A stretch of 41,895 bases of DNA from an uncultured Candidatus Peribacteria bacterium (GCA_964434585.1 CAYSVN010000002.1:1-41895), one strand, 5' to 3'; counted from the stretch's first letter, positions 1 through 35,738 are shown. Made by a program: numbers and translations. The notes: generated by a model not told the origin, from the sequence alone.

Positions 1-1613
1 CGGTTATTGGAGATGTAAAACATGATATTCCTGCACCAACGATGTGCCCAGAATGTCGATTGCAGCGTCGATTTACACACCGTAATGATCGTAAACTTTA
101 TAAGCGCAAAGAAGACTTTACTGGTGAGCAAATTATTACTATGTTTTCGCCCGAAAGTCCGGTTCCGGTAATGCATAAAGACGAATGGTTTTCTGATAGA
201 TGGGATGCCACAGAATACTGCATGGAATATGATTTTAATCGCCCATTTTTTGACCAATTTTTTGAATTACAAGCAAAAGTACCTAGGGCACATTTAGCAA
301 CGGTTAATACAGAAAACGCTGATTATACTAATTATAATTCCAGTAATAAAGATTGTTATTTATGTTTTGCGGGCAATTATACCGAGGATAGTTTTTATTG
401 TTACCATGCAGAAAAATGTATAAATTGTTGTGATTGCAATCATGTTCATGAGTGTGAACTTTGTTACGAAAATATTCAGAGTGAACATTGTTATAATACG
501 CAGTATTGTTTGCATTGCTCTGGCTGTGCAGATAGTTACTTCTTAGAAGACTGTCGTGAATGTAAGCATTGCTTTATGTGTTTTAACCTTACACAAAAAC
601 AGTATTGTATTTTTAATGAACAATACACACGTGAGCAATACTTTGAACAACTTAAAAGCTATAAACTTCATACACATTCGGGAAAAATAAAGGCTATTGC
701 TATGTGGCATCAAAAACGTTTACAGTTTCCGAAGTCTCAACATCATAATCGTTTGGCTGAAGATAGCTCTGGTGAATATTTAAACGAATGTAAGAATTGT
801 GTTAATTGTTATACTATGTCGAGTGGATGCCAAGATTGTAAAAATGTCTTTAGTGGATTTCCAGAACTAACAGATGCTCAAGATTGTACGTACTGTGGCG
901 AGAAAACTAGCTTAATGTATGAAAATTTGGCTAGTGGTGAGAATTGCCGGTCACTCTTGTTTTGTAACATTGTCTGCACAAATTCTAGTAATATGATTTA
1001 CTCTGATTTATGTTTTGGCTCTCATAATTGTTTTGGCTCTACATGTCTTAATAAAAAACAGTATTGTATTTTAAATAAACAATATACCAAACAGGAATAC
1101 GAAAAATTGGTGCCACGTATTATTGAGCACATGAAAACTACTGGCGAATGGGGTGAATTTTTTCCAGTACATAAATCTATTTTTGCTTATAATGAAACGC
1201 AAGCATTTGAACACTTTCCATTAACACAGAAAGAAGTATTAAAACGTGGCTGGCGATGGTTGGATTATGAAGAAGAAACACCTAATGTTTCTAAATTTAT
1301 ACCGGCTTTAGACTTACCAGACAGTATTGATGATATTCCTGATGATATTTTAAATTGGGCTATTACCTGCGAGCGTACTGAAGTGCCTTTTAAAATTACT
1401 CCTCATGAGTTGCGTTTTTATCGCCAGCATCGTATTTCTATACCTAGACTTTGTCCGGAGGAGCGTCATAAAGATCGTTTTGTACAACGTAATAAACATA
1501 CAGCCTATAATCGTCAATGTGCTAAGTGTTCTGCAGACATACAAACAACCTATGCACCCGAAAGACCAGAGACTGTTTACTGCGAAGCCTGTTACCTTTC
1601 CGAAGTTTACTAA
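1..1613 (+). CDS. Cys-rich zinc-ribbon repeat protein, paralog 1 (5' end cut by window edge; reading frame starts at nt 3)
   Basis: The frame is open from nt 3 (VIGDVKHDIPAPTMCPECR...), upstream of the track's Met at 42. It is colinear with the four other paralogs, with the same RPFF box, CxxC-rich core, KQYCILNKQYT..LVPRIIEHM..TGEWGEFFP box and C-terminal YCEACYLSEVY. Stop is TAA at 1611-1613. Confidence 0.9.
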   Translation, partial: VIGDVKHDIPAPTMCPECRLQRRFTHRNDRKLYKRKEDFTGEQIITMFSPESPVPVMHKDEWFSDRWDATEYCMEYDFNRPFFDQFFELQAKVPRAHLATVNTENADYTNYNSSNKDCYLCFAGNYTEDSFYCYHAEKCINCCDCNHVHECELCYENIQSEHCYNTQYCLHCSGCADSYFLEDCRECKHCFMCFNLTQKQYCIFNEQYTREQYFEQLKSYKLHTHSGKIKAIAMWHQKRLQFPKSQHHNRLAEDSSGEYLNECKNCVNCYTMSSGCQDCKNVFSGFPELTDAQDCTYCGEKTSLMYENLASGENCRSLLFCNIVCTNSSNMIYSDLCFGSHNCFGSTCLNKKQYCILNKQYTKQEYEKLVPRIIEHMKTTGEWGEFFPVHKSIFAYNETQAFEHFPLTQKEVLKRGWRWLDYEEETPNVSKFIPALDLPDSIDDIPDDILNWAITCERTEVPFKITPHELRFYRQHRISIPRLCPEERHKDRFVQRNKHTAYNRQCAKCSADIQTTYAPERPETVYCEACYLSEVY

Positions 1614-3295
1614 TGAATAAGCAATGCACCCAATGTTCGGCTAGCTTTAATATTACAGATGAAGATCTGCAGTTTTACGATAAAGTAAGCCCGGTTATTG
1701 GAGATGTAAAACATGATATTCCTGCACCAACGATGTGCCCAGAATGCCGCAGGCAACGACGTTGGGTTTTTAGAAATGAGCGTAATTTGTTTACTTCTAA
1801 ATGTGCTAAAACAAATGAGCCTATTATTACTAACATTCATCCAGAGGCTGGTTTTACAACCTATAACCAGTCGTATACCTGGAGCGATGATTGGGACGCT
1901 AAAGATTTTGGTAAAGACTATGATGACTCTCGATCATTCTTTGAACAAATGGGTGACCTGGTACAAAAAGTTCCTCAATTACCATTGATGAATATGCACC
2001 ACATTAATGAAAACAGTGGTTATTGTAATAATACCAATGGAGTTAAAAATTGTTATATGACATTTGATAGCTCTACTTCGCAAGATGTGTATTACAGTAA
2101 TATTATTATCCATAGTAATGATTGTTTAGATTGTAGCCACGCTGTTGAAAGTAAGTTTTGTTATGGCTGTGTTGATGTTGTAAGGTGTACAAATTCTCGC
2201 TTTTTACTACGGAGTGAAAATTGCCATGACAGCATGTATCTTTTTGATTGTCGTAATTGTCATTATTGTTTTAACTGCAGCAACTTAAGAGGTAAGGACT
2301 ACTACATTAATAACGAATATGTTGGTAAGGAGCGCTACGAGCTTTTTATGAGGTCTTATAAGTCTACGTCGTTTACTCAGCAACAAAATGATTACAGAGT
2401 ATTTATGGATCTTATTCAGCAATCAATTTACTCGCCTGCCAACCTTATTCAGTCGGAAGGAAGTGTAGGTGACAATTTAACAAAATGTAAAAATGTGTAT
2501 GAAAGTTATGACTGCGAAGAGGCAGAAGATTGTAAGCATCTTGTTTCTGTTCACAACCTTAAAACTGCGTATGATACTCAGCATACGTACAAGGGAGAAC
2601 TTCAGTTAGAAATAATGGGCATGGTGAATTCTTATCGTACTGCTTTCTCTTGTTGGATATTAGATTCTAGTAATATTTTATATAGCTTTTTTCTTAATAA
2701 CTGCACTGATTGTTTTGGATGCACTATGCTTAAACGCGATAAATTCTGTATTTTTAATAAACAATATACCGAGGACCAATATAACGATTTAGTACCACGT
2801 ATTATTGAGCGAATGAAAACTGATGGAGAGTGGGGGCAGTTTTTCCCTGTCTCTATGAGTCCATTTGCTTATAATGAATCGTTAGCGCAAGAAAATTTTC
2901 CGTTAACACAAAAACAAGCAGAGAAGCGTGGTTGGTTGTGGCGAGAAAAACAACATAACGTTGGCCAGGTTGATAAAATTATTCCAGCCATTGAGCTGCC
3001 AGATGATACTAATGATATTCCAGATGATATTTTAAACTGGGCACTTACCTGTAGTGCTACGGGTAACCCTTATCGTATTATTCCACATGAGCTACGGTTT
3101 TACAGGCAGCATAATTTGCCAATTCCAAGATTTCATTTTGATGAACGCCATCAACAGCGAATGACTCTGCGTAATTTGCGAATGTTGGCATCTAAACAAT
3201 GTTCTAAGTGTGTTAAAAATATTCAGGCAGCTTTGCCTAAAGGGTATCAGGGTAAGGTTTATTGCGATGAGTGTTATCTTAAAGAAGTCTATTAA
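1613..3295 (+). CDS. Cys-rich zinc-ribbon repeat protein, paralog 2
   Basis: The track ORF starts at 1526 inside paralog 1. The ATG at 1613 (TAATG stop/start overlap) gives MNKQCTQCSASFNITDEDLQFYDK..., which matches the N-termini of the other paralogs. About 560 aa. Confidence 0.9.
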   Translation: MNKQCTQCSASFNITDEDLQFYDKVSPVIGDVKHDIPAPTMCPECRRQRRWVFRNERNLFTSKCAKTNEPIITNIHPEAGFTTYNQSYTWSDDWDAKDFGKDYDDSRSFFEQMGDLVQKVPQLPLMNMHHINENSGYCNNTNGVKNCYMTFDSSTSQDVYYSNIIIHSNDCLDCSHAVESKFCYGCVDVVRCTNSRFLLRSENCHDSMYLFDCRNCHYCFNCSNLRGKDYYINNEYVGKERYELFMRSYKSTSFTQQQNDYRVFMDLIQQSIYSPANLIQSEGSVGDNLTKCKNVYESYDCEEAEDCKHLVSVHNLKTAYDTQHTYKGELQLEIMGMVNSYRTAFSCWILDSSNILYSFFLNNCTDCFGCTMLKRDKFCIFNKQYTEDQYNDLVPRIIERMKTDGEWGQFFPVSMSPFAYNESLAQENFPLTQKQAEKRGWLWREKQHNVGQVDKIIPAIELPDDTNDIPDDILNWALTCSATGNPYRIIPHELRFYRQHNLPIPRFHFDERHQQRMTLRNLRMLASKQCSKCVKNIQAALPKGYQGKVYCDECYLKEVY

Positions 3296-3309
3296 GGTAT
3301 ACTACAGGC

Positions 3310-4980
3310 ATGCAATCATCATGTGTTCAATGTAGTGCAAATTTTACGGTAACTGACGAAGATCTTGGTTTCTATGCTCGTAAAGGAGTGCCAGCACCAA
3401 CCCATTGCCCCGATTGTCGTTACCAACGTCGTATTGCTTGGCGTAACGAGCGTCATCTTTATGCTGCAACGTGTGCTGCAACGGGTAAGCCAATGGTATC
3501 AATTTATAGTGATGATAAGCCTTATACGGTTTATGAGCGTAGCCAGTGGTTAGAAGTTGATAATACCGATAAAGGTCGAGACTTTGATGTTAATCGACCA
3601 TTTTTTGAACAATGGAATGAATTATTTTTGCAGAGCATTAAGGCGAATGTTATTCAGAATGGTTTAATGCTTAATAGTGAATACACCCACTTTACCGGTG
3701 AGATGAAAAATGCCTATTACATGTTTAATTCTGGAAAATGTGAGGATGTATATTATGGCATTCTTAATGTTTATAGTAAAAGTTGTGTTGATGTGTATTG
3801 GGGTTTTTATAGTGAGCTTTGTTATGAATCGGTACATTGTGCCCACTCCTATAACCTTCATTACTCATCGCACAGTAGTAACTGTAGTGATAGTGCATTT
3901 TTAAGAGATTGTATGAGCTGTCGACATTGTATTGGTTGTACAAATTTACGCAATAAAGAGTATCACGTTTTTAATAAACCCGTTTCTAAAGAGGAATACG
4001 AAAAACTTTGGTCAGAAATTTTTTCTGGTAAACACTCTTCTGTTCAATCGTTTAGACAGCAATGGAGTGAATTTGAGGCAGCTCAACCTTATTGGCTGCG
4101 GAATATAAATGTAGTTGACTGTACTGGTAGCCAGTTAATTGATTGTGAAAATGTAAAAGAGAGCCACGTTTGTACGGGGTGTAAGGACATAAAATTTTGC
4201 CAAGATATGGAAGTTGATACCGAAGATTGTTATGACGTTAGTACCTTTGGTGAGGGAATGACAGGCTGCTACGAACTGACGACAAGCGGTGGAGTAAAAG
4301 GCTCGTCAGAAATTGTTGGTTGTATGTTTTCGGCTTATATTTTTTATGGAGGATATAATATTTACTACAGTGTAAATTGCCATGATAACTGTAAAGACTT
4401 ATTTGGTTGCTGCGATTTACGCGGTAAGCAATATTGTATTTTTAATAAGCAATACACCAAAGAGCAGTACGAAGCTTTAGTACCTAAACTGATAGAGCAC
4501 ATGCAATCTACTGGAGAATGGGGAGAGTTTTTTCCGATTGTAATGAGTCCGTTTGGTTATAATGAGTCACTTGCTATGGAGCAGTTTCCTTTGAATAAGG
4601 AAGAAGTCTTAACCAGTGGCTGGAAATGGCAGGGGCAAGAGGCAGGCTCAAAAAATAAGGAAACTGTTGATTGGAATGATGTGCCAGATAGCGTTAATGA
4701 TATTAATGAAAATATTACACGAGAAGTTCTTTGTTGTACATGTTGCCAACGCAGTTACCGTATCGTGCCCCAGGAGTTAAGTTTTTATCAATCAGTTGGA
4801 GTACCGTTACCTCAACAGTGTTTTAACTGCCGGCATACCCAACGCCTTAAACACGTTGAATTACGTCGTTTATTTACACATGATTGCAGTAAATGCCAAA
4901 AAACAATGCAGTCAACATATGCACCAGGTACATCTAAAACTGTATACTGTGAAGAGTGTTATTTATCTGAAATTTATTAA
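3310..4980 (+). CDS. Cys-rich zinc-ribbon repeat protein, paralog 3
   Basis: 556 aa with the same architecture: N-terminal CxxC..FTVTDEDLGFY..CPDCRYQRR, CxxC-rich core, KQYCIFNKQYTKEQYEALVPKLIEHMQSTGEWGEFFP, C-terminal YCEECYLSEIY. It starts 14 nt after paralog 2. Confidence 0.92.
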   Translation: MQSSCVQCSANFTVTDEDLGFYARKGVPAPTHCPDCRYQRRIAWRNERHLYAATCAATGKPMVSIYSDDKPYTVYERSQWLEVDNTDKGRDFDVNRPFFEQWNELFLQSIKANVIQNGLMLNSEYTHFTGEMKNAYYMFNSGKCEDVYYGILNVYSKSCVDVYWGFYSELCYESVHCAHSYNLHYSSHSSNCSDSAFLRDCMSCRHCIGCTNLRNKEYHVFNKPVSKEEYEKLWSEIFSGKHSSVQSFRQQWSEFEAAQPYWLRNINVVDCTGSQLIDCENVKESHVCTGCKDIKFCQDMEVDTEDCYDVSTFGEGMTGCYELTTSGGVKGSSEIVGCMFSAYIFYGGYNIYYSVNCHDNCKDLFGCCDLRGKQYCIFNKQYTKEQYEALVPKLIEHMQSTGEWGEFFPIVMSPFGYNESLAMEQFPLNKEEVLTSGWKWQGQEAGSKNKETVDWNDVPDSVNDINENITREVLCCTCCQRSYRIVPQELSFYQSVGVPLPQQCFNCRHTQRLKHVELRRLFTHDCSKCQKTMQSTYAPGTSKTVYCEECYLSEIY

Positions 4981-4988
4981 TATTATTT

Positions 4989-6665
4989 ATGAACCAAACC
5001 TGTACTAATTGCGGCAGTGACTTCCAAATAACGGATGAAGATCTGGCGTTTTACGATAGCGTTTCACCAGTTATTAACGGGCAGAAATTTTTAGTACCAT
5101 CACCGTTGCAATGCCCTGACTGCCGATACCAAAACCGATTAACATGGCGTAACGAACGCTGGATGTATAAGCGCAATTGTGACGCTACTGGCAAGAGTGT
5201 GGTGTCTATTTTTTCGGCTGATAAAACGTGGCCGCCAGTTTATAAGCAAGATTTTTGGTGGAGCGATAAATGGAATGCACGTGATTATGGAAGAGATTTT
5301 GACTTTAACCGACCGTTTTTTGAACAATGGTTAGAGCTTTTTAAAGTGGTGCCACAGGCAGCGCTTAATAATCAACAGAGTGAAAATTGTGAGTACACTA
5401 ATCAATCACAACGTAATAAAGATTCCTATATGATATTTTGTAGCAACATGAGTGAGAACTGTATGCATAGCATGTGGTTACAAAAAAGTAGAGACACCAT
5501 GGATTGTTTATATACAGCAGAAGGAGAGCTAGCGTACGATATTTTAAATGGTGATGTTTGTTACCGGTGCAGCTCTTCATCGAACCTTAAAAACTGTAGT
5601 GACGTTCACTTTTCACGAGATTTAATTGGCTGTAGTAATTGTTTTGGCTGTATGAATTTACGCAATAAGCAGTATCATATTTTCAATGAACCACATAGCA
5701 AAGAAGATTATGAGCAAAAAATTGCTGAATTAAATTTACATTCTAGATCTGGACGATTAATGGCTAAAAAATATGCTGATGAATTTACAGCCGAGGTGAT
5801 TCATAAATATTATACTGGTAGTAACATAGAAGCATCTTCCGGAGATTATATTATGGATGTTACTAGTACGCGTGATTGTTTTAATTGCCGTGATACCGAG
5901 GCTACTGCTTACTGCCAAGACTTTTGGCGGGGACATCATTGCCAAGATCTTACCGAAGTTGCTGATGCTGAGTTTTGCTACCAAGTAGAAGGTTCTGCGC
6001 CCGGGAACCAAGTATTGTTCTCTAAAAAATTCTGCAATTTAACAAATAGCATGTATAGCTCGCATTGTAATAGTTCTAGTAACTTGTTTGGTTGTATTAG
6101 CTTAAATAATGGTGAGTATTGTATTTTAAATAAGCAGTATACGCGTGAGGAGTATGAAGCGTTGGTGCCACGTATTATTGAACATATGCAGTCTACAGGG
6201 GAGTGGGGACAGTACTTTCCAGCTACTGGTACGCCGTTTTGCTACAACGAAACCGTAGCTCAGGAATACTTTCCGTTAAGCAAGCAGCAAGCACTAGATG
6301 CTGGTTACTGCTGGCAAACGCACATGCCTAATACTACCGGTAAGCAAACAATAGAGTGGTCTGATGTGCCAGATAGTATAGCTGATATTACTGATGATAT
6401 TACGAAAGAAATTTTAAGCTGTACTTGCTGCAGTAAAAATTATCGTATTATTCCCCAAGAATTAATATTGTATAAGCAAATGCATATTCCGGTGCCAGAT
6501 GTTTGCGCAGATTGGCGACATGTATCACGGATGAATCGTCGTAATCCACGTAAGCTTTTTACTTTCCAGTGTGCTAAATGTTCTAAGGATATTGAAACAA
6601 CGTATCCACAACATAGCCAAGAAATTGTTTATTGTGAAGAATGTTACCTGTCTGCCGTCTATTAA
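4989..6665 (+). CDS. Cys-rich zinc-ribbon repeat protein, paralog 4
   Basis: 558 aa with the same architecture. It starts 8 nt after paralog 3. Confidence 0.92.
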   Translation: MNQTCTNCGSDFQITDEDLAFYDSVSPVINGQKFLVPSPLQCPDCRYQNRLTWRNERWMYKRNCDATGKSVVSIFSADKTWPPVYKQDFWWSDKWNARDYGRDFDFNRPFFEQWLELFKVVPQAALNNQQSENCEYTNQSQRNKDSYMIFCSNMSENCMHSMWLQKSRDTMDCLYTAEGELAYDILNGDVCYRCSSSSNLKNCSDVHFSRDLIGCSNCFGCMNLRNKQYHIFNEPHSKEDYEQKIAELNLHSRSGRLMAKKYADEFTAEVIHKYYTGSNIEASSGDYIMDVTSTRDCFNCRDTEATAYCQDFWRGHHCQDLTEVADAEFCYQVEGSAPGNQVLFSKKFCNLTNSMYSSHCNSSSNLFGCISLNNGEYCILNKQYTREEYEALVPRIIEHMQSTGEWGQYFPATGTPFCYNETVAQEYFPLSKQQALDAGYCWQTHMPNTTGKQTIEWSDVPDSIADITDDITKEILSCTCCSKNYRIIPQELILYKQMHIPVPDVCADWRHVSRMNRRNPRKLFTFQCAKCSKDIETTYPQHSQEIVYCEECYLSAVY

Positions 6666-6749: not shown

Positions 6750-6779
6750 TTGCCTTAAATGAGCTAATTATGGTATAAT
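6750..6779 (+). promoter_or_regulatory. Candidate sigma70-type promoter with extended -10 upstream of the VirD4/TraG-like gene
   Basis: TTGCCT (6750-6755), an 18-nt spacer ending in TGg, then TATAAT (6774-6779), 22 nt before the ATG at 6802. Confidence 0.45.
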
Positions 6780-6801: not shown

Positions 6802-9033
6802 ATGGCTTTAACATTCATTAATGTCACCATTCCACCGGGTAGCGGAGATCAAAGCAAATTTGAGTCTCGTTTTAATGAACTTGTGCTTTCGCTTTATAAC
6901 ACCGTTAGTAACCAACGTTTTAGTTTTGAATACATTGGTTTTAACCAACATACGTATTTTGCAATTGTTTGTGATACTCGTTACCAGGGAACTATTGAAG
7001 GTCTTATTTATTCGATGTTCCCAGATGCGGAAATTAAAATTGGTACCGATTATACGCTTAGTTTTGATCCACAAAAACAAGCATTTGCTGGAGCGGAATT
7101 AGTGCTTCGCGATAGTGATGTGTACCCGATTCAAACGTATGATCAATTTGAAAGTGACAGTATGTCGCGGTATTTTTCGAGCGTGAGTAAGATGGAACTA
7201 GGAGAGCAGGTGTGGACACAGGTTATTGTAGAGCCAAAATCTGAAACAGGCGTTTTTTACTTTAAGCGCCGATTTCGTGCTTGGATGGCCCGATTTAAAA
7301 CATGGTTCTCGGTAACAGATCGTCTACGTAAAGATGGACTACGTGGTATTAACAAAACTCGTCGTGAGTTTTCTGGTTACAAAGAAAAAGATAAGCCATT
7401 TACTACAACCATTCGTTGTGTGTACGTTGCAGATAGGCCTGATATTGCTAAAGCAAAACTTAATGCGGTGCTCGATAGCTTTACGCAATTTAACGACGAC
7501 GATATTAATGGATTTAAACCAAAAAAATCTACGAATAGTCCAGCATTCTTAAATAAATATAGAGCCCGCGTACATGGTGATAGCTACTTTTTAAGTTCGC
7601 GTGAAATTTCTACTATTTATCATTTTCCCAATGCTGATGCGGTAAGCCACGTTGTGCATGTGCTTGCGCGAAAGTCAGATCCACCAAAAGATTTACCAAA
7701 AGCTAGCGATAGTGATGTTAGCCCATTTGGAACCACAAACTATCACAATAACTTTGTACCATTTGGTATTAAGCGTAAAGATCGCCGCCGCCATTTGTAT
7801 GCCATTGGTAAGTCGGGTTCTGGTAAATCTAAAATGCTAGAACTACTTATTTATAGTGATGTAATGTCTGGCCAAGGAGTATGTGTATTAGATCCGCACG
7901 GTGACCTTTGTGATGCAGTGCTTAAAATGGTTCCTGAAGAACGCATACAAGATGTGATTATTTTTGATCCGTCTGATACAGAATTCCCGATTGCATTTAA
8001 CCCGTTGATGACCGTGGATCCGAAATATAAAATGCAACTTACCATTGGTATTATCGAGATCTTTAAAAAACTGTTTGGAGATAACTGGAGTGACCGCCTA
8101 GAACACGTACTGCGTTATACACTATTAGCGCTGCTTGATAGTCCAAATACAACGGTGCTTAGTATTTTAAAAATGCTTACCGATAAAAACTATCGCCAAC
8201 AAATTGTTTCGCGTATTCAAGATAATGTAGTTAAAAATTTTTGGGTATCAGAGTTTGCTGGTTGGTCTGAAAAATTTGATGCCACGGCTATTACGCCACT
8301 GCTAAACAAAGTGGGGCAGTTTGTGGCAACAGATATGATTCGTAATATTGTAGGGCAGCCAGAAACAAAATTTGATATTCGTGACGTGATGGATAATCGT
8401 AAAATTTTACTACTGAAAGTTTCTAAAGGACTCCTTGGTGAAGAAAATGCATCGCTGATTGGTTCGATGATTATTACGAAGATTTACCAAGCAGCCATGA
8501 GTCGTGCAGATATGGCAGAAGATGATCGAGCTGATTTTTACTTTTACGTGGATGAGTTCCAAAACTTTGCAACCGAGACATTCTACGAAATTATGTCGGA
8601 GGCTCGTAAGTATCACCTTTGTTTAACGATTGCGCACCAATACATGGGTCAGTTATCTGATAAAATTCGCCAAACTGTATTTGGTAACGTTGGTTCGATG
8701 ATTAGCTTTAGGGTAGGAGCAGAAGATGCCCGTATTTTGGCTGAGGAGTACAATCCTGTTTTTAATGAGCGCGATATTATTAACTTGGGGGTTCGTGAAT
8801 TTTACACAAAGCTCTCTGTTAATGGCGAATTGCGCGAAGCTTTTTCTGGTCGCACACTTAATGCTCCAGACCCAGAGCCAACATTAGTACCTAATATTAT
8901 TACATGGTCTCGCCAAACGTACTGTATGCCTAAAGACGAAGTTGCTAAAGTTATTAACGCCTGGGATGAAGGTAACTTAGATGCCGAAGCACCATCTGCC
9001 ATTGTAGAAGAATTTGAGGCACCGATTGTATAA
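6802..9033 (+). CDS. VirD4/TraG/TraD-type (type IV coupling-protein-like) P-loop ATPase, no membrane anchor, ~300-aa unassigned N-terminal domain
   Basis: Walker A is AIGKSGSGKSK followed by VLDPHGDL. Walker B is FYFYVDEFQNF. The C-terminal HLCLTIAHQYMGQL...FGNVGSMISFRVG is typical of the TraD/TraG C-terminal region. No hydrophobic N-terminal helices. Confidence 0.8.
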   Translation: MALTFINVTIPPGSGDQSKFESRFNELVLSLYNTVSNQRFSFEYIGFNQHTYFAIVCDTRYQGTIEGLIYSMFPDAEIKIGTDYTLSFDPQKQAFAGAELVLRDSDVYPIQTYDQFESDSMSRYFSSVSKMELGEQVWTQVIVEPKSETGVFYFKRRFRAWMARFKTWFSVTDRLRKDGLRGINKTRREFSGYKEKDKPFTTTIRCVYVADRPDIAKAKLNAVLDSFTQFNDDDINGFKPKKSTNSPAFLNKYRARVHGDSYFLSSREISTIYHFPNADAVSHVVHVLARKSDPPKDLPKASDSDVSPFGTTNYHNNFVPFGIKRKDRRRHLYAIGKSGSGKSKMLELLIYSDVMSGQGVCVLDPHGDLCDAVLKMVPEERIQDVIIFDPSDTEFPIAFNPLMTVDPKYKMQLTIGIIEIFKKLFGDNWSDRLEHVLRYTLLALLDSPNTTVLSILKMLTDKNYRQQIVSRIQDNVVKNFWVSEFAGWSEKFDATAITPLLNKVGQFVATDMIRNIVGQPETKFDIRDVMDNRKILLLKVSKGLLGEENASLIGSMIITKIYQAAMSRADMAEDDRADFYFYVDEFQNFATETFYEIMSEARKYHLCLTIAHQYMGQLSDKIRQTVFGNVGSMISFRVGAEDARILAEEYNPVFNERDIINLGVREFYTKLSVNGELREAFSGRTLNAPDPEPTLVPNIITWSRQTYCMPKDEVAKVINAWDEGNLDAEAPSAIVEEFEAPIV

Positions 9034-9554: not shown

Positions 9555-11297
9555 ATGCTTAAACGAATATTACAACTTATAAAACGACATCCTATTTGGA
9601 CTGCTGTAGGCGTACTTAGCTTACTGCTATTGTTCTTTTTATTTTCTTGGTTATTTTCTGAAAAAGGGCCAGAATATATTACCGTAGAAGCTACGCAGGG
9701 AGATTTATACCAAACAGTAGAGGTTGTAGGAGAGGTAGTATCTGATAGAGACCTAGGACTTCAGTTTCCAATTTCTGGTGTAGTGAATACTGTCCTAGTA
9801 AACGAAGGCGATGTTGTAAGTGCTGGCCAAACATTGGCGCAACTGCGCTCGGGTCGTGAAGGTGCTAACATTTCTGCACAACGTGCTTTAGTAGATGCAG
9901 CAACAGCAGAATTGCGTATTTTAGAAGCGGGGACACGACCGGAAGATATTGCAATTGCTCAAGCAGATTTACAAAATAAGATGGCTAGCTTATCTACCGC
10001 TATGGCAGCACAACGTTCTGCCCAACAAACATTGCAAGCTGCTGAAGCTAATTTAAGCGCATTACAACTTGAAACAGGCGTCTCTTTAGGTGGCCAAATA
10101 ACGACGTCGCTTGCAACTACCTCACAAAATCTTAGTGTGGCCCGAGCTGCCTTAACGGCAGCAGAAAGTGTGTTAAACGAAGGTGTTATCCGTACTGCTA
10201 TTCGTAATGAAGGTACGTCACGATTAGAAGTGTTTATTCAATCAATTTCTCAGTCTAATGCAGCGATTGACGCTATTTCTACTATTGGTGTGGCTGGCTT
10301 GCCGGATACACTTACAGTATTGCAGACTGCTGTAGATGCTGTTTCGCAGGCTAGTACAACTATTGCAACACTGCGTAGTACTATTGCAACTTTACCAATC
10401 GGAGGATCGCTAACACGTAGTACACAAAATGGTTACGTTGCCACACTGACAGCGCAAGAAACCTCTGTGCAGAGTGCTCTTAGTGGCGTACAAGGAGCAT
10501 TTACGAGTTTAAAAAGTGCCTCTGCTGGTTTGGATACCCGTATCAGTAATGAACAATCTGCGCTTACCAATGCTCAAGGTTCTTATGATAGAGCCAGCTC
10601 TGACATTGCGACATTCCAAAGCTTGGTTACTATTGCGCAAGCTCAGCTTGATAAGATAAAAGCAGGAGCAAGACCAGGTGAGCTTGATGCTGCTAGAGCA
10701 CGTGTTCGCCAGGCTCAAGCCAACTTATATAGTGCATCTGTTGCCTGGACTGATACTCAGCTTAAAGCACCGGTTGCTGGCCTTATTACTAAAGTAAATG
10801 TAAAAGCTGGTGAATTTAGCCCACCAGGTCCAGCGGTAAACATGCTTGGTAACAGTCCTTTTAGAATGGAGGTATTTGTTAGTGAAATTGATGTACCTAA
10901 ATTAAATGCCGCGCAGTCTGGAACTACAACACTCGAGGCATTTTCGGGCATTAATTACGCCATGCGTGTTAGTGACATTGATAGTGATACTACCGATCGT
11001 GATGGTACTCCTAAATATAAAGTACTTCTTGATTTTGTATATGATCACCCTGAATTTAAAGTTGGTATGACAGGGGATGCTACGATTATTACTGACAGCC
11101 GTACTGACGCTATCTCTGTGCCTGGCCGTGCAGTGTTAACGCGTGATGATGGCACAGAGTACATTCGCATTCGTAAAGATGCTCAAACAGTTATAGAACG
11201 GGATGTGGAGCTTGGTATTAGTGGTGAAGATGGCCTTGTAGAAGTACTAAAAGGTGTCTCTGCTGGAGAAGAGGTTATTGTGCTAGAGAAAGAGTAA
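9555..11297 (+). CDS. HlyD/MacA-type periplasmic adaptor (membrane fusion protein) with unusually long A/S/T/Q-rich helical insert
   Basis: N-terminal TM anchor. Lipoyl-like segments GVVNTVLVNEGDVVSAGQTLAQL and APVAGLITKVNVKAGEF. Beta-barrel/MP tail (DVELGISGEDGLVEVLKGVSAGEEVIV). 580 aa. Confidence 0.75.
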   Translation: MLKRILQLIKRHPIWTAVGVLSLLLLFFLFSWLFSEKGPEYITVEATQGDLYQTVEVVGEVVSDRDLGLQFPISGVVNTVLVNEGDVVSAGQTLAQLRSGREGANISAQRALVDAATAELRILEAGTRPEDIAIAQADLQNKMASLSTAMAAQRSAQQTLQAAEANLSALQLETGVSLGGQITTSLATTSQNLSVARAALTAAESVLNEGVIRTAIRNEGTSRLEVFIQSISQSNAAIDAISTIGVAGLPDTLTVLQTAVDAVSQASTTIATLRSTIATLPIGGSLTRSTQNGYVATLTAQETSVQSALSGVQGAFTSLKSASAGLDTRISNEQSALTNAQGSYDRASSDIATFQSLVTIAQAQLDKIKAGARPGELDAARARVRQAQANLYSASVAWTDTQLKAPVAGLITKVNVKAGEFSPPGPAVNMLGNSPFRMEVFVSEIDVPKLNAAQSGTTTLEAFSGINYAMRVSDIDSDTTDRDGTPKYKVLLDFVYDHPEFKVGMTGDATIITDSRTDAISVPGRAVLTRDDGTEYIRIRKDAQTVIERDVELGISGEDGLVEVLKGVSAGEEVIVLEKE

Positions 11298-11704
11298 GGC
11301 AGGGATTAGGTTGCGGGAATTAGGGATTAGTGTTAGATTACTATCTTATGCCTATTAATAATTTTAAAGATCTCATTGTTTGGCAAAAATCTATGTATCT
11401 AGCTGAAATTATTCATGATATTTCGAAATTGTATCCAAATGATGAGCGTTATGGTCTTACAGGTCAGATCAGAAGGTGTGCGGTTTCAATTCCTTCAAAT
11501 ATTGCTGAGGGGTATTGTCGTAGTACCAGTAAAGACTACGCACGTTTTTTACATATTGCTTATGGATCTGCTGCTGAACTTGAAACCCAGTTACTTCTTT
11601 CAAAAAAATTTGGCTATATTAATTCTCAACAATTTCAATGTTGTGAATCAGTTTTGATAGAAATTCTTACCCCTAAACCTTAACCTCTAACCCCTAACCT
11701 TACC
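11296..11704. repeat. Imperfect inverted repeats of TTAGGG/GGGATTA-like units bracketing the four-helix-bundle gene (IVS-like cassette)
   Basis: The left arm at 11296-11336 (aaggcagggattaggttgcgggaattagggattag) is approximately the reverse complement of the right arm at 11666-11704 (cttacccctaaaccttaacctctaacccctaaccttacc). Confidence 0.6.
11348..11683 (+). CDS. Four-helix-bundle protein (23S rRNA intervening-sequence protein family)
   Basis: FKDLIVWQKSMYLAEIIHDISKLYPNDERYGLTGQIRRCAVSIPSNIAEGYCR...YGSAAELETQLLL is the family signature. The ATG at 11348 is preferred over the GTG at 11330. Confidence 0.88.
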   Translation: MPINNFKDLIVWQKSMYLAEIIHDISKLYPNDERYGLTGQIRRCAVSIPSNIAEGYCRSTSKDYARFLHIAYGSAAELETQLLLSKKFGYINSQQFQCCESVLIEILTPKP

Positions 11705-16805: not shown

Positions 16806-16895
16806 TGGCGGAGAGAACGGGATTCGAACCCGTGAGACTTTTGCAAGTCTACACGCTTTCCAAGCGTGCGCATTCGACCACTCTGCCATCTCTCC
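16806..16895 (-). tRNA. tRNA-Ser (anticodon GGA), CCA encoded
   Basis: The reverse complement reads GGAGAGA...CACGC-UUGGAAA-GCGUG, a long variable arm AGACUU-GCAA-AAGUCU, T arm ACGGG-UUCGAAU-CCCGU, then UCUCUCC-G-CCA. Confidence 0.93.
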
Positions 16896-19232: not shown

Positions 19233-19784
19233 ATGAAGTCATTAAAATTATATATAGCCGGTAAAGTTGCACCAGACTCTGAGTTTGGTACACATGATTG
19301 GCGTGATGGTTTTTGTGCAACATTGAGTAAGCTTTCTGCGCTAAATTTAATAAACTTAGACCCCACTAAGCATGAAGATGGTTTTACGATGGATGTAGGC
19401 AATCCAAAACTTGTTGTGGGCCGTGATAGCTATATGATTAAAATTGCAGATGCGGTTATTGTGCATTTAACAGATGATATTAGCGTGGGAGGTTCTCAGG
19501 AAATGTTAATTGCAAAGCATTTCAATAAGCCATTAATTGGCTTAGCTCCCATTGGGGGTAAGTTTTACCGCGCCCATAAAACTATTCGTGGTATTGAATA
19601 CACTAATTGGATTCACCCGTTTGTAGATGTTACTTGCGATAAGGTTGTATCGACCATTGAAGAATTGGCAATTGCATTACAAGAATTGCCATCGGCTCCT
19701 AAGACGGTAAATTGTATTGATGAAGCTGTTGCTTATTATGAACATAGCTTTTTAAAACATGATGAATTTTTGAATAATCTTTAA
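19233..19784 (+). CDS. Nucleoside 2-deoxyribosyltransferase-like protein
   Basis: N-terminal KLYIAGK motif and a later VGGSQEMLIAKHFNKPLIGL (conserved Glu context), as in the NDT-like superfamily. Confidence 0.45.
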   Translation: MKSLKLYIAGKVAPDSEFGTHDWRDGFCATLSKLSALNLINLDPTKHEDGFTMDVGNPKLVVGRDSYMIKIADAVIVHLTDDISVGGSQEMLIAKHFNKPLIGLAPIGGKFYRAHKTIRGIEYTNWIHPFVDVTCDKVVSTIEELAIALQELPSAPKTVNCIDEAVAYYEHSFLKHDEFLNNL

Positions 19785-21253
19785 TGTTATTTGCAAAATT
19801 ATTACTGAGCCTTTTATTAATTATTACCCCATTTGCTTTACTTGCACATGATGATGACCAAGAGCATGCTGTTATTATTCACTTTAGCCTAGAAGGCTAT
19901 TCTCCAGATGTGTTAGAGGTCCCAGTTGGAACAACAGTAGTTTTTGAAAATATATCAGATCAAGATTTTTGGCCAGCGAGTGACGACCACCCAAGCCATA
20001 CTGTTTACGATGGCACTTCGCTTGATGAGCATTGTAAAGACGGTATTATTGCTTTTGATGCTTGCGCAGGTTTGGCTCCAGGCGCTGAGTGGTCCTTTAC
20101 GTTTGATGAAGCTGGTATATTTGATTTTCATGATCATCTTTGGCCACATTTAGATGGTGTCATTACGGTCTACGATTTTAATGAATCTACGAAAGAACTC
20201 CCTGGATTTACAGAATTAAAACAAGAAGTTAAAAAGCTGTCGTTCTTCGCATCGGTACAGCAACTGTTCCGTAATTTTTACGCTTGGCTGTTTGGCTCTT
20301 CTCCTAAAAAAACTTATGTTGGCCCACTACTTACAGGCGATACACAAGATGGTTATTACGTTGAGCTGCAACAACAGTTTGTAGATTTAGTAAATTTGCA
20401 AGATCCTAAAATAGCTATTGAAACATTGCAAATGCTTGGGGAAACAGATACTCGTGCCTTGGCACTTTGCCACGATGTACTGCATGAAATTGGTAAGGCA
20501 GCCTTTATAAAATACGGCAACTTTCAAACTGCGGTTGAATTTCAATCTGACTTTTGTAACTCGGGATACATTCATGGATTGTTCGAACAGTACTTTAAAG
20601 TAACAGAAAATCCATTTGCAGCATTAAGCCAGCAATGTGAGCAATATGCTGCGGGTAAACGCCCGTTTGACTTATGGCAATGCCACCATGGTATAGGGCA
20701 TGGTTTTATGTATTTAAATGGTGGAGATTTAGATACTTCACTGCAACATTGTGAAGATGGATTAGATGGTTCAGCAGTAGATTCTTGCCAAAATGGAGCA
20801 TACATGGAACTCTTTAACCAAGAAATATTAGCAAAAGAATTTAATTATTTGTACCCAGATGATCCATTTAAACCCTGTAAAGATCGTGTAGATAACAAGG
20901 GTGATTGTTATTTGTATGTACCAACGTATTTATCGCAAACGTTAAATATTGCGTACCAAGATATGTTTGATGTTTGCGCTAATGCAGAACGAAATTATCG
21001 TTCTACTTGTATTGCAGGCGTTGGGTCCGAAGCTTTTAAGCGTAATATGCGTAATGTAGAAACTTTGGTAGAACTTTGCTTAAGTGCTAATACAACACTA
21101 GAACAAAATAGTTGTATGGGTGGTGTTATTAGTATGAGTATGAACCAGGCAGGTTCGTACCAAGCAGGGGAGCAGCTTTGCAATGAATTGCCTGAGCGCT
21201 TTGATGCTGTATGCGTAGCTAAGCTTAACGGTAAGAAAAACTTTTTTGAGTAA
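19784..21253 (+). CDS. Secreted protein: N-terminal cupredoxin-like domain (no Cu-Cys) + Cys-rich C-terminal domain
   Basis: Signal peptide. YSPDVLEVPVGTTVVFENISDQDFWPASDDHPSH...GIFDFHDHLWPHLDGVITV. TAATG overlap with the upstream gene. Confidence 0.5.
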   Translation: MLFAKLLLSLLLIITPFALLAHDDDQEHAVIIHFSLEGYSPDVLEVPVGTTVVFENISDQDFWPASDDHPSHTVYDGTSLDEHCKDGIIAFDACAGLAPGAEWSFTFDEAGIFDFHDHLWPHLDGVITVYDFNESTKELPGFTELKQEVKKLSFFASVQQLFRNFYAWLFGSSPKKTYVGPLLTGDTQDGYYVELQQQFVDLVNLQDPKIAIETLQMLGETDTRALALCHDVLHEIGKAAFIKYGNFQTAVEFQSDFCNSGYIHGLFEQYFKVTENPFAALSQQCEQYAAGKRPFDLWQCHHGIGHGFMYLNGGDLDTSLQHCEDGLDGSAVDSCQNGAYMELFNQEILAKEFNYLYPDDPFKPCKDRVDNKGDCYLYVPTYLSQTLNIAYQDMFDVCANAERNYRSTCIAGVGSEAFKRNMRNVETLVELCLSANTTLEQNSCMGGVISMSMNQAGSYQAGEQLCNELPERFDAVCVAKLNGKKNFFE

Positions 21254-22426: not shown

Positions 22427-24520
22427 ATGGATCTTAAGAACGTACGAAACATTGGTATTATTGCGCACATTGATGCGGGTAAAACCACAACAACAGAACG
22501 CATTTTATTTTACACCGGTGTTAGTTACAAAATTGGTGAAGTTCATGATGGTGAAGCAACCATGGACTGGATGGAACAAGAGCAAGAACGCGGTATTACT
22601 ATTACGTCTGCTGCAACTCAGTGTCACTGGACAGCGCCAGATGTAAACGGTGCAGAAACAAAAGTAACCGTTAACATTATTGATACCCCAGGACACGTAG
22701 ACTTTACTGCAGAGGTAGAACGTAGCTTACGTGTGCTAGATGGAGGTGTGGCTGTATTTGATGGATCACAAGGTGTTGAACCACAGTCTGAAACGGTATG
22801 GCGCCAAGCAGATAAGTATGATGTGCCACGTATTGCATTCGTTAATAAAATGGATAAAACCGGTGGTGACTTTATGATGTCACTTAACTCTATCCACGAA
22901 CGTTTAAGTACTGATGCCGTTGCTATTCAATTGCCAATTGGTGAAGAAGGAGACTTTAATGGAATTGTAGACTTAGTAGAGATGAAAGCTTATACCTTTA
23001 GTGGTACGCATGGAGAAATTCAAACTGAAATTGATATTCCAGCTGATATGGAAGCGGAAGCAGCAGTTATGCGTGAAACTATGATTGAAAAGGTTGCAGA
23101 AAACGATGAAAAATTAATGGATATTTACCTAGAAAGTGGTGAGCTTACAACAGACCAGATTAAACAAGGGTTACGTGCTGGTACAGTTACCGGTAGTCTT
23201 TACCCTGTACTTTGTGGTTCTGCACTTAAAAATGTAGGAGTGCAGAAAATGCTAGATGCTGTGGTTGCTTACTTACCAAGTCCGCTAGATATTCCAGCTT
23301 CTAAGGGTACAAACCCAGATACCGAAGCAGAAGAAACTCGCGAAGCTAACAATGACGCTCCACTTGCTGCGGTATCATTTAAAATTGCTACTGATCCTTA
23401 TGTTGGTCGCTTAACGTTCGTTCGTGTTTATAGTGGTGTGCTTAAGTCTGGTACAAGTGTTTACAACTCTCGTAGTGGTAAAGAAGAACGTATTGGACGT
23501 ATTGTAAAAATGCACGCTAACAGTCGTGAAGAAATTGATAAGGTAGAAGCAGGAGATATTGCTGCGGTTATTGGTCTTAAAGATGCACGTACTGGTGATA
23601 CTCTTTGTGATAAAGCTAAGCCAATTGTTCTAGAAGAAATTACGTTTGCTGACCCGGTTATTTCTATTGCTGTTGAACCTAAAACAAAAGCTGACCAAGA
23701 AAAAATGGGTATTGCTCTACAAAAGCTTTCAGAAGAAGATCCAACCTTCCGTGTTAAAACAGATGATGAGACCAACCAAACTATTATTTCTGGAATGGGT
23801 GAACTGCACTTAGATATTTTAGTAGACCGTATGAAGCGTGAGTTCTCTGTAGAAACAAATATTGGTGAACCTCAAGTTGCTTACCGTGAGACTATTCAAC
23901 AAGAAGTAGAACATGAAGAAAAATACAGTAAGCAAACTGGTGGACGTGGACAATTCGGTCACGTTATCTTTACGATTGAACCACAAGAAGCTGGTAAAGG
24001 ATACGAGTTCGAAAACAAAGTGGTTGGTGGACGTATTCCAAAAGAATTTATTAACCCATGTAATAAAGGATTCCAAGAAGGTCTTGGCCGCGGTGTGGTA
24101 GCTGGCTACCCAATGGTTGATATTAAAGTAACCCTAAGCGATGGTAGTTACCATGATGTGGACTCGTCTGAGTTCTCGTTTAAAGCGGTAAGTAGTATTG
24201 GGTTTAGAAACGCTGCTCGCAAAGCAAAACCAGTTCTATTAGAACCAATTATGAAAGTAGAAGTTGTTACTCCAGATGATTTCCTTGGAGATGTTATGGG
24301 TGACGTAAGCTCTCGTCGTGGACTTATTAAAGAACAAAGCGATAGAGGTACTGCTAAAGTTGTTACTGCAGAGTTGCCACTAAGTGCGATGTTCGGTTAC
24401 GCTACACAGCTTCGTTCTATGACCCAAGGCCGTGCAAGTTACGCAATGGAATTCGACCACTACGGTAAGGTTCCACCAAACGTTGCAGAAGAAATTAAGA
24501 AGGCAAGGGGAGTGGAATAG
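22427..24520 (+). CDS. fusA: Translation elongation factor G
   Basis: Full-length EF-G: [54 protein letters not shown], and the domain IV/V motifs. Confidence 0.98.
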
Positions 24521-24675: not shown

Positions 24676-24726
24676 TGTTTTAAAATTACTATCATTTAAA
24701 TATTAAATATGATATAGTATTTGGCT

Positions 24727-25173
24727 ATGACACAGAGGCATCCTGTTCAAAATGATCGGCTGATGTTTATTACCACTAATACACATGATCGTGCTACTTA
24801 TTTTTTAGATGAAGACATTGCTCGCATAAGCATTGAGATGCTTTATGATGTTAAAAAACGACATCCATTCTATTTGCATAGCTTTGTGGTAATGCCTGAT
24901 CATTGGCATATGTTATTATGCGTGCCACCCCCTGGATTAATTTCTGTTATTATGAATCAGTGGAAATCCCTCACAGTAAAAAATACAAATGAGGTAAAAA
25001 TTTGGCAAAAACGATTTTATATACAATTGGTTGATGATCCTTATCTGGTTATTAATTATATTCATCAAAATCCTGTTAAGGCAGGACTGTGCAATATTGC
25101 TAAGGATTATAAATGGTCATCTGCTTCTGATAATTGGCCAATTGATGATTTGCCCATATTGGATTATTTGTAA
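24727..25173 (+). CDS. REP-associated tyrosine transposase (RAYT; IS200/IS605-like Y1 HUH transposase)
   Basis: HUH motif in VVMPDHWHMLL. The catalytic Tyr region is YIHQNPVKAGL. About 148 aa, flanked by REP-like palindromes. The ATG at 24727 is preferred over the TTG at 24721. Confidence 0.85.
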   Translation: MTQRHPVQNDRLMFITTNTHDRATYFLDEDIARISIEMLYDVKKRHPFYLHSFVVMPDHWHMLLCVPPPGLISVIMNQWKSLTVKNTNEVKIWQKRFYIQLVDDPYLVINYIHQNPVKAGLCNIAKDYKWSSASDNWPIDDLPILDYL

Positions 25174-31635: not shown

Positions 31636-32754
31636 ATGCATTCACGCTATCAAAAAGTAATGGCTTTAATTGTTACAGCTATTTTGCTGGTATTTTCTGG
31701 CATTATTGTTAAGCAAGAATTAGCCGCATCGTTACTCGATATTAAAGGAACCCCTTACCATACTTCGTTTTCTTACCTTTTAAGTCGTGGTATTATTGAT
31801 GGTTATCCTGATAAAACAGGACGACCTTATGGATATATTAATAGAGCAGAAGTGGTAAAAGTATTGGTAAATGCTCGTGAAGACTTACGCTTAAAGTTGC
31901 CAGAAATTGAAGCTGGATTACCACAGTTTCCGTTGTTTGTGGATACCCAACAAGACCAATGGTATGCTCCACATTTAGAGCTTGGTTTTAAAGAACAGCT
32001 TGTTACTGGTTACCCAGATGGTAGTTTTAGACCAGGCCAACTCGTGCGTGTAGAAGAGGCGGTCGCACTATTAACAAGAGCATTTAAACTACATGAAACA
32101 CGTAACGATGTTGTAGATTCTGCTTATATAGAAAACCAACCTAACCAATGGTTTACATTACCAATTAATGCGGCGGTGGCTCGTAATCTTATTCAACATA
32201 AGTCTAACCTACGTTTAGGTACGGCTATGACACGTGGCCAATTTTTCGATATGTTATACCGTTTACATCTTATCCAAAATACAGACCAAGCTATGTACCA
32301 GGGCCCAGAACCATTTGAGGAACTACCAGATTTACCAGATGCTCCAGCAGTTGAAAATATTGCTATTAGTATAGAGCAGCCTAATACCTCTAGCCCGATT
32401 GCAGTTGAATATGGTGGTGACACTGAAGTTGCGACTGAAATTGCTGCTCCACCTCCACCTCCACCTCCACCGCCTGCGCCTCCAGTTAATACTACTATTA
32501 ATACTGGTCAAAACACTGGTGGTAGCACAGTATCTGCCAATAATAATGGTGGCGGCACTACGACCACAGTTAACAATAATGGCGGTAGCACTATTAACTC
32601 TAACAATAATGGTGGTGGCACTACTGTTAATGCTGGTTCTTCTAACAATGGTGGTACTATTAATGCTGGCTCTAATCCATTATTTTTGATCCAAATTTAC
32701 CGATTGAATATGTCGATAGTCATCCAGAAAAATCGTTTTTACCTTATGCTATGA
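31636..32754 (+). CDS. Membrane-anchored SLH-domain protein with poly-Pro and Asn/Gly-rich linker; the 3' end looks frameshifted
   Basis: N-terminal TM helix. Three SLH repeats (e.g. FVDTQQDQWYAPHLELGFKEQLVTGYPDGSFRPGQLVRVEEAVALLTRAF), then P9APP and NNNGG(G/S)T repeats. The last ~24 aa after the T5 run at 32683-32687 look non-native. Confidence 0.7.
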   Translation: MHSRYQKVMALIVTAILLVFSGIIVKQELAASLLDIKGTPYHTSFSYLLSRGIIDGYPDKTGRPYGYINRAEVVKVLVNAREDLRLKLPEIEAGLPQFPLFVDTQQDQWYAPHLELGFKEQLVTGYPDGSFRPGQLVRVEEAVALLTRAFKLHETRNDVVDSAYIENQPNQWFTLPINAAVARNLIQHKSNLRLGTAMTRGQFFDMLYRLHLIQNTDQAMYQGPEPFEELPDLPDAPAVENIAISIEQPNTSSPIAVEYGGDTEVATEIAAPPPPPPPPPAPPVNTTINTGQNTGGSTVSANNNGGGTTTTVNNNGGSTINSNNNGGGTTVNAGSSNNGGTINAGSNPLFLIQIYRLNMSIVIQKNRFYLML

Positions 32755-35733: not shown

Positions 35734-35738
35734 GTTTT

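Follow-up and report, generated by a model that had tools for sequence, protein, structure and literature searches.

Tandem arrays of cysteine-rich proteins with predicted zinc-ribbon ends and 12-residue solenoids adjoin a VirD4-like ATPase in Candidatus Peribacteria and related bacteria

What are the cysteine-packed proteins encoded by the head-to-tail genes that open a 41,895-nucleotide (nt) stretch of DNA from an uncultured Candidatus Peribacteria bacterium (GCA_964434585.1, CAYSVN010000002.1:1-41895; this whole stretch is called the window below), and with what do they work? An earlier note on this DNA had seen in them an expanded, diversifying family of cytoplasmic metal-binding (Zn or Fe-S) proteins that could not be placed among the characterised ones. 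The comparisons presented here describe a family with predicted zinc ribbons at both ends and two thin predicted beta-solenoids between them, encoded as a rule in tandem arrays of the candidate phyla radiation (CPR), in whose neighbourhood a TrmB-like regulator and a VirD4-like ATPase recur; they lead us, tentatively, to regard the paralogs as partners of that ATPase.

All five open reading frames (ORFs) reported earlier, four in a head-to-tail row and one distal, are present on the + strand, and none is interrupted, which speaks against pseudogenes. The first, p1 (3-1613; 536 amino acids (aa) seen), has lost its 5' end at the window edge and covers profile positions 28-557 (family hidden Markov model (HMM), E 1e-194); p2 (1613-3295; 560 aa; family HMM E 2e-207) has an ATG that overlaps the p1 stop (TAATG); p3 (3310-4980; 556 aa) and p4 (4989-6665; 558 aa), the final gene of the array, follow after spacers of 14 and 8 nt, respectively. 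This tight packing, already described in the earlier note, argues for co-expression. The distal p5 (33210-34895; 561 aa) is a solitary copy, to which p1-p4 are 38-45% identical and which served as the reference for paralog numbering and identity comparisons; of the orthologue groups, its own is the best conserved and in other loci is mostly placed directly after the TrmB-like regulator. Cysteine accounts for 5.4-7.6% of the residues (41/536 in p1, 30/560 in p2, 37/556 in p3, 34/558 in p4 and 41/561 in p5, the last being exactly the number once counted by hand), compared with 0-0.8% in three neighbouring proteins of the window. The motifs listed earlier all align across the five paralogs, and the claimed lack of a signal peptide or transmembrane helix was borne out in all of them: their 19-residue Kyte-Doolittle hydropathy nowhere exceeds 1.05, whereas a membrane protein of the window reaches 3.05.

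The paralogs have an internally duplicated architecture, which sequence comparison leads us to write as Z1-S1-S2-(middle)-Z2. In p5, Z1 (aa 1-105; 33210-33524, +) combines a predicted Cys4 treble-clef zinc ribbon (C5, C8, C42, C45) with a degenerate second ribbon; S1 (aa 132-239; 33603-33926, +) is made of nine 12-residue coils with Cys at every third position and closes with C-x-N-L-x2-K-x-Y-C-I-F-N; S2 (aa 286-385; 34065-34364, +), homologous to S1, ends in FGC...YCILN; the middle segment (aa 386-470; 34365-34619, +) is acidic and aromatic-rich, contains the KQYT..EY helix, GEWGEFFP, F.YNET.A and the DIPDD box, and begins with the family's most conserved stretch, of ~55 residues (profile columns 381-440); and the strongly basic Z2 (aa 471-561; 34620-34892, +) joins a degenerate treble clef to a CxxC-x17-CxxC ribbon whose cysteines are C531, C534, C552 and C555 (profile columns 527, 530, 548 and 551). 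Profile-profile alignment with hhalign found Z1 homologous to Z2 (probability 99.8%, E 4.4e-29) and S1 homologous to S2 (99.9%, E 9.1e-35), with 0.2% for a control pair. The earlier claim that the C-terminal module is a second copy of the N-terminal one thus has statistical support and, together with the Pfam and NCBIfam matches, this homology upholds the earlier view of the end modules as duplicated zinc-ribbon or treble-clef units, whereas the two 'Cys patches' of that note, although present, have to be redrawn as mutually homologous domains.

An AlphaFold2 model of p5, built on a 112-sequence alignment, is confident overall (predicted local distance difference test score, pLDDT, 89; predicted template modelling score, pTM, 0.91). 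It gives, in chain order, an N-terminal ribbon and helices, a beta-rich region (121-236), further helices, a second beta-rich region (300-385), a long helix, a loop-rich segment and the C-terminal ribbon module, each beta-rich region being helix-capped; Z1 is modelled as a hairpin, after which a helix begins at the second CxxC pair. The nine coils of S1 stand in clean register (e.g. CEDCYLSYSVHK / CKDCLDCFRLRE / CELCTECVDCYD), and in the alignment of 211 full-length members that underlies all conservation and cysteine statistics given here, Cys occupancy in S1 autocorrelates whenever the spacing is a multiple of three (0.47-0.68), peaking at 3 and 12. We read S1 and S2 as very thin beta-solenoids of 12-residue coils, in which the inward, every-third positions would be filled by Cys, Ser or small hydrophobic residues.

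Neither sequence nor structure comparison places this architecture in a characterised family, as the earlier note had already held. Scans of all paralogs against Pfam, NCBIfam and PADLOC returned only weak end-module matches and left the core (~75% of the length) uncovered, and no confident full-length match came from Pfam, NCBIfam or PDB. In a profile search of PDB sequences, LIM-type matches were confined to the last ribbon (E 0.005 or worse), and S1 alone reached E 0.39 or worse. Foldseek found no match at E <=0.001, either for the full p5 model against PDB and BFVD or for a separate model of residues 383-561 against PDB; its best weak matches (E 0.01-0.6, template modelling score ~0.1 or lower) were all left-handed beta-helix proteins. 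In a tblastn search against phages, the S1 repeats match a gene annotated 'insect antifreeze protein' (E 6e-4). A near-cut-off match to the Med15_N KIX domain at residues 377-401 corresponds to the conserved KQYT..EY helix and was regarded as spurious.

Are the many cysteines there to bind metal? In a reading that goes back to the earlier note, the paralogs would be cytoplasmic metal-binding, metal-storage or Fe-S proteins whose numerous CxxC units bind Zn or Fe, and their cysteine content and many CxxC and CxxCxxC runs are in keeping with this idea. For the two ends the claim stands: the N-terminal set C5/C8/C42/C45 is all Cys in 90% of the members and the C-terminal set C527/C530/C548/C551 in 96%, and these two terminal Cys4 sets, one per end, are the only ones conserved as sets. 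The second treble clef, with which Z2 begins, retains four Cys in only 30% of members, p3 and p4 within the window among them; other well-kept positions are the pair C371/C380 (96%), C216 (94%), C219 (97%) and C477 (91%). For the core, however, the claim is not supported. Its Cys columns hold Cys in 35-85% of members, with Ser, Leu, Val and Gly as the usual substitutes, and the presence of Cys is nearly independent between columns (maximal phi 0.42), so that its covariation across the 211 members disclosed no disulfide or metal pairing; such exchange and lack of pairwise coupling argue for packing residues rather than a metal core. At a separation of six residues the mean phi is -0.13, which argues against an antifreeze-type disulfide ladder, since in such a ladder it would be strongly positive. 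Four inward Cys are seldom found in one coil (0-18%), p2 has lost a quarter of its cysteines and yet retains the fold signature, the ferredoxin-type CxxCxxCxxxC(P) motif is absent, Pfam gave no Fe-S matches, and PDB matches to PsaC have E values of 0.6 or worse. On the other side, 62% of members have the complete run C213-x2-C216-x2-C219-x2-C222, the only candidate for an extra, third metal site, and the Cys-dense part of S1 was modelled at lower confidence, for which a missing ligand could be the cause. We give a general metal-binding or Fe-S function a very slight chance. For most of the ~40 cysteines, packing is a better reading than membership in ligand sets or in an Fe-S core, and the conservation pattern leads us to conclude that each protein has two conserved predicted zinc sites, with a putative third in some paralogs, around a core that is Cys-rich but apparently not organised by metal.

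Variation is concentrated in the middle of the protein (profile columns 161-180, 241-280 and 301-360), and the last 17 residues are, besides columns 381-440, the most conserved. The earlier contrast between conserved termini and a variable core is therefore sound as far as sequence goes, but not for the length of the core, as the 211 full-length members span only 526-585 aa.

How far does the family extend? A search of 90%-identity clusters with p5 returned 5,484 relatives, the best of them 52% identical, from Peribacteraceae, Peregrinibacteria, Gracilibacteria and Patescibacteria metagenome-assembled genomes (MAGs); their source names are almost all 'hypothetical protein', with a single 'Zn ribbon nucleic-acid-binding protein'. 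A profile search of 1.84 billion representatives of 50%-identity clusters yielded at least 5,330 clusters at the threshold of E <=0.001 and 2,324 at E <=1e-30, and the best 150 matches are nearly all ~550-600 aa long and aligned end to end. The family is expanded and apparently cytoplasmic, as had been proposed. Contigs with one genome per species contain at least 576 matching stretches; the 79 best of these loci, which together with the window (80 sequences) were taken into the neighbourhood analyses, come nearly all from MAGs of Peribacteria, Peregrinibacteria, Gracilibacteria or Abawacabacteria, and the family's main home is thus in the Gracilibacteria-class lineages of the CPR. Translation with table 25 reveals full-length family genes in UGA-recoded Gracilibacteria, too. 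In one such locus (L052, 8170-21304, table 25; 23.6% GC), the array alternates full-length members of ~560-600 aa with shorter, very divergent ones of ~475-498 aa, which cover profile positions ~70-510 and are devoid of either zinc-ribbon end.

A few relatives come from MAGs that bear the labels Bdellovibrionota, Oligoflexia or Proteobacteria. One of them is located on a 1.87-Mb contig of 56.5% GC, beside genes that by eye resemble Ku and LigD, and another among genes for DAHP synthase and cysteine dioxygenase. The two non-CPR loci examined (L024, 9090-11635; L083, 8001-9656) have a single family copy each, and the ~47-50% identity of these relatives to CPR members suggests an exchange by transfer between both groups; one locus has a divergent TrmB-like regulator, yet no ATPase within 10 kb. 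A phage or plasmid origin of the family was considered and rejected: the plasmid collection gave no matches, the phage collection only low-complexity-like ones, and IMG/VR one marginal contig.

The neighbourhoods hint at function. A scan of the 79 loci with the family HMM showed the genes to be arranged in tandem as a rule, as many as 8-10 of them within 20 kb, in MAGs of Peribacteria, Peregrinibacteria, Abawacabacteria and Gracilibacteria. When all non-family ORFs of the 80 sequences were clustered, the two commonest neighbour families were a TrmB-like helix-turn-helix regulator and a VirD4-like ATPase. The regulator (~265 aa; assigned by NCBIfam and Pfam TrmB matches) occurs 42 times in 31 loci, in most cases divergent and just upstream of the array, sometimes interspersed in long arrays. 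The ATPase (~750 aa) has 26 genes, spread over 24 loci and the window; 23 of them share the strand of the family genes and 20 lie within 350 nt of one, usually the array's last. With r for the regulator, F for a family gene and A for the ATPase, typical orders read rFFFFA, rFFFFFFFAF and FFFFrFrFA. The FFFFA of the window is the 3' end of such an array, with the regulator presumably beyond the left edge.

In the window, this conserved closing gene (6802-9033, +) encodes a soluble, VirD4/TraD-like P-loop ATPase of 743 aa. It scores above the Pfam cut-offs for T4SS-DNA_transf (PF02534; 38.6 bits, cut-off 20.1), TrwB_AAD_bind (PF10412; 26.1 bits, cut-off 20.5) and TraG-D_C, and is distant from the NCBIfam VirD4/TraD equivalogs, all of which are far below their cut-offs. 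No transmembrane anchor was detected in it (maximal 19-residue hydropathy 1.28), and an orthologue in locus L080 has an N-terminal DUF8128 domain. Within the 136-nt spacer between p4 and the ATPase gene there is a promoter-like site (6750-6779, +; TTGCCT, 18 nt, TG-TATAAT), which matches the consensus and no more; such sites are not more numerous in this region than in the shuffled background. By gene size and annotation, the same order is found in the complete genome of Ca. Peribacter riflensis (PMC4736985, Table S2), where genes 657-666 comprise a 748-aa COG0433 ATPase, seven proteins of 550-570 aa, a TrmB regulator and a 267-aa gene; the annotators remarked 'C-rich ... GATA-type zinc finger (transcription factor??)', and the text of that paper is silent on these genes.

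We take this arrangement, with some hesitation, as a sign that the paralogs are a panel of specificity-bearing partners of the soluble DUF8128/VirD4-like ATPase: the reading is possible, and we prefer it while holding it at less than even confidence. The paralogs would be interchangeable clients or adaptors of the array-end ATPase, their conserved zinc-ribbon ends and conserved acidic middle segment forming a common docking surface for it, and the variable solenoid faces and linker giving each paralog its own binding specificity; the ATPase might remodel them, load them onto nucleic acid or pass them to a type IV secretion system (T4SS)-like apparatus. Beside the gene order and the tight packing, the charges of the segments (mean net charge +6.6 for Z2 and -7.2 for the middle) and the contrast of conserved termini with a variable middle speak for this reading, as does a survey of Patescibacteria in which only 148 of 5,713 VirD4-like homologues are near virB4 and whose authors raise a possible exaptation for other functions (PMC12102498). 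Several observations weigh against such a partnership. The link between paralogs and ATPase is one of gene order and of nothing else; about one third of the arrays with enough downstream sequence have no ATPase after them; solitary copies, p5 included, are far from any such gene; and the non-CPR relatives are single-copy, with no ATPase within 8-10 kb. The order of paralog lineages within arrays is not conserved. As to the solenoid faces, S1 is modelled with moderate confidence (residues 160-230 have a pLDDT of only 62-71), and the coil geometry was derived from sequence periodicity and the DSSP pattern.

The same closing ATPase invites the idea of exported effectors, in which it would feed the paralogs to the T4SS-like machine of Patescibacteria for delivery into or onto host cells, with the basic C-terminal module as the translocation signal. 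The distribution of conservation fits, as Z2 is both conserved and basic (mean net charge +6.6) and the middle variable, and the proteins have no Sec signal. The occurrence of the family in MAGs labelled Bdellovibrionota or Oligoflexia would also fit, the Bdellovibrionota including bacterial predators. Furthermore, two T4SS-pilin-like genes adjoin p5, although this adjacency is not conserved in the 79 loci and was rejected as a feature of the system. The ATPase itself has no membrane anchor, and the compact, zinc-stabilised folds predicted here (pTM 0.91) would be awkward for a channel that needs unfolded substrates. The ~40 unpaired cysteines, uncoupled between positions i and i+6, argue against an oxidised extracellular form, and the orthologue lineages are ancient, unlike those of fast-turnover effectors. 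The T4SS of Patescibacteria lacks conjugation components and its role is open, which would leave room for such export; however, the VirD4-like ATPases of these bacteria seldom lie near virB4 (PMC12102498). Taken together, we judge export unlikely. We attach a comparably low probability to a broader version of the partnership, in which the arrays would encode the missing working partners of the orphan, membrane-less VirD4-like ATPases that are widespread in Patescibacteria. The two would form a hitherto undescribed delivery or remodelling system, whose motor handles a repertoire of zinc-capped double-solenoid proteins with individual target specificities and which the epibiont would use on or against its host cell; if this were true, the family members in Bdellovibrionota- and Oligoflexia-labelled MAGs would point to its exchange between both groups.

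A role in nucleic-acid handling was also considered, in which the zinc-ribbon ends would bind DNA or RNA and the ATPase would be a DNA translocase, the system processing imported or transferred DNA, or the paralogs acting as transcription factors. ATPases of the VirD4/TraD/HerA type act on DNA; the treble-clef and zinc-ribbon modules at both ends carry a basic helix (CPxCRxQRR, RNxR), in Z2 within the positively charged module described above; and both the single informative source name among the relatives of p5 and the guess of the Peribacter annotators point the same way. Nonetheless, the whole protein is mildly acidic (median pI 6.1), with acidic solenoids and an acidic middle segment (mean net charge -7.2), the Pfam and NCBIfam scans recognised no DNA-binding domain, zinc ribbons make protein contacts as often as nucleic-acid contacts, and a DNA-handling factor would not usually come as 8-10 co-expressed paralogs in one array. 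This role therefore seems improbable to us.

Finally, tandem, diversified paralogs beside an ATPase of the HerA/VirD4 superfamily are reminiscent of a conflict or defence system, in which the variable paralogs would be sensors of phage or host molecules and the ATPase the effector or motor. The window ATPase matches the PADLOC mad8 model (E 2.7e-11) and HerA models, and some gene turnover is suggested by 20 internal fragments among the 266 family ORFs. However, PADLOC gave no match for the family itself; no nuclease or other toxic effector recurs in the neighbourhoods of the loci examined; and the family is near-universal and ancient in its lineage, not patchy, and essentially absent from the phage and plasmid collections. 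Defence is therefore very unlikely in our opinion.

The closest relative of a member within its own locus has a median identity of 44%, against 59% for the closest relative in another locus, and for 87% of members it is the locus of another genome, and not the same array, that contains the nearest relative. The paralogs thus represent old, separately maintained lineages rather than recent duplicates. Of the 'diversifying' family of the earlier note, the variable middle remains, whereas recent diversification is at odds with paralogs of this age. With paralogs and available orthologues at 40-60% identity, we considered synonymous sites saturated. The internal fragments mentioned above reflect some decay or assembly error. 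Exchange within the array has probably occurred as well: nt 1-55 in p1 are identical to nt 1692-1746 in p2 (91% identity over 1-70 versus 1692-1761), compared with ~65-75% DNA identity elsewhere, and this shared tract in the N-terminal module is probably a trace of gene conversion.

The rest of the window is an ordinary chromosomal context (36-41% GC). Directly after p5 are genes for two related membrane proteins (34897-35766 and 35739-36650, both -), of which the first matches T4SS_pilin (PF18895) and the second, without a Pfam result of its own, matches the first by jackhmmer; a Bax1-I family gene (36776-37471, +) comes next. This order recurs in the gene table of Ca. Peribacter riflensis, where a VirB2-like gene is followed by one of equal size and then by a K06890 gene (PMC4736985). 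Directly upstream of p5 (31636-33170, +) are a gene for an SLH-domain protein with a long Pro/Asn/Gly-rich tail and, overlapping it by 4 nt, a 139-aa sortase-domain ORF that has no N-terminal anchor. A further Cys-rich protein, distinct from the paralog family, is encoded at 19784-21253 (+); it has 489 aa, many Cys and His residues and an N-terminal hydrophobic segment like a signal peptide, and gave no Pfam or NCBIfam match. A 23S rRNA-intervening-sequence protein (11330-11683, +; PF05635, four-helix bundle) has members of its cluster near arrays in three other loci, and an IS200-like Y1 transposase domain protein (24721-25173, +; PF01797, E 8e-10) stands alone. Also present are an HlyD-like protein (9555-11297), EF-G (22427-24520, recognised by sequence), a MacB/FtsX permease (26531-27754), tRNA-Ser(GGA) (16806-16895, -) and tRNA-Tyr(GTA) (41454-41538, +).

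Several aspects make this family worth attention. CPR/Patescibacteria genomes measure ~1 Mb, yet each array takes up 10-17 kb and there are often several, which is a major investment for bacteria with a host-dependent lifestyle. With at least 5,330 clusters at 50% identity, the family has a confidently predicted architecture without structural precedent, and about three quarters of its length is outside curated models. The linkage to the ATPase gives a testable lead on the role of the thousands of coupling-protein homologues that are away from virB4, and the predicted solenoid would be an apparently reduced, cytoplasmic, Cys/Ser-filled 12-residue coil, a design otherwise found in disulfide-locked, secreted antifreeze proteins. 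Its parts, the zinc ribbon and the beta-solenoid, belong to known classes of fold; in the sources searched, neither the overall architecture nor the apparently reduced, Cys/Ser-filled 12-residue solenoid nor the regulator-array-ATPase arrangement is described. In the literature on PF13451/zf_Tbcl and on Cys-rich families in Gracilibacteria, no description of it was found. An identity with the 'cysteine-rich extracellular proteins' of Peribacteria (PeerJ 2016) was rejected, as those have 580-3,860 aa and are mostly secreted and pappalysin-like.

How, then, does the family compare with known systems? The genetic setting recalls T4SS substrates. In Bartonella, tandem bep effector genes are located beside virD4, and here likewise a VirD4/TraD-like ATPase adjoins tandem paralogs that vary in the middle, are conserved at both termini and have a basic C-terminus; the linkage to a VirD4-type gene, mostly on the same strand and at the array end, is seen in the window and 24 loci. 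In contrast to T4SS coupling proteins, the window ATPase lacks a transmembrane anchor and its orthologue in L080 begins with DUF8128, and neither a relaxase nor VirB4 is encoded near the arrays. Moreover, unlike T4SS substrates, the paralogs are predicted to be rigid, zinc-bound folds, the positive charge of Z2 being that of a putatively folded zinc ribbon. A further parallel is with the orphan VirD4-like genes of Patescibacteria, which are mostly remote from virB4 (PMC12102498).

The end modules resemble zf_Tbcl (PF13451), with which the N-terminal module shares CxxC ... F-x-[IV]-T-x-E-D-L-x-F-Y ... CPxCR, and C5, C8, C42 and C45 fit the Cys4 site of that family with its two CxxC pairs. Against a cut-off of 24 bits, p3 scores above (24.9), p4 (16.9) and p2 (14.5) below, and p1, whose N-terminus is missing, and p5 do not match; between about one seventh and one fifth of the listed homologues carry a precomputed PF13451 match. 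Z2 resembles zf_Tbcl_2 (PF23477) and TIGR04272 through its exact CxxC-x17-CxxC (columns 527, 530, 548 and 551); the matches cover the last ~35 residues and are below the cut-offs (15.6-24.0 bits against 27 for PF23477; 15.1-21.3 bits against 36 for TIGR04272). BFVD models named 'putative zinc-ribbon domain protein' also align to the end modules. These Pfam and NCBIfam treble-clef domains span only about one quarter of a paralog, and their descriptions assign no function; in the paralogs, zf_Tbcl-type domains are duplicated at both ends and joined to a solenoid core that lies outside the description of either family.

For this core, one likeness is to the insect antifreeze type. The antifreeze protein (AFP) of Tenebrio molitor is a thin, Cys-rich, secreted beta-helix with a disulfide-locked 12-residue repeat, TCTxSxxCxxAx, and the paralogs share with it (TmAFP, PF02420) a 12-residue coil with small inward Cys or Ser at every third position; they differ from it in having no Pfam AFP match, no i/i+6 Cys coupling and no signal peptide. 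The left-handed beta-helix proteins (GlmU, LpxA, LpxD, gamma-carbonic anhydrase) provided the best, if weak, Foldseek matches. From hexapeptide-repeat proteins (PF00132) the paralogs are set apart by a period of 12 with a sub-period of 3, and not 18, and by the lack of a Pfam match at E <=1; from both TmAFP and the left-handed beta-helices they differ in having two solenoids per protein, each helix-capped. The resemblance to antifreeze and left-handed beta-helix proteins is one of architecture, not of family membership.

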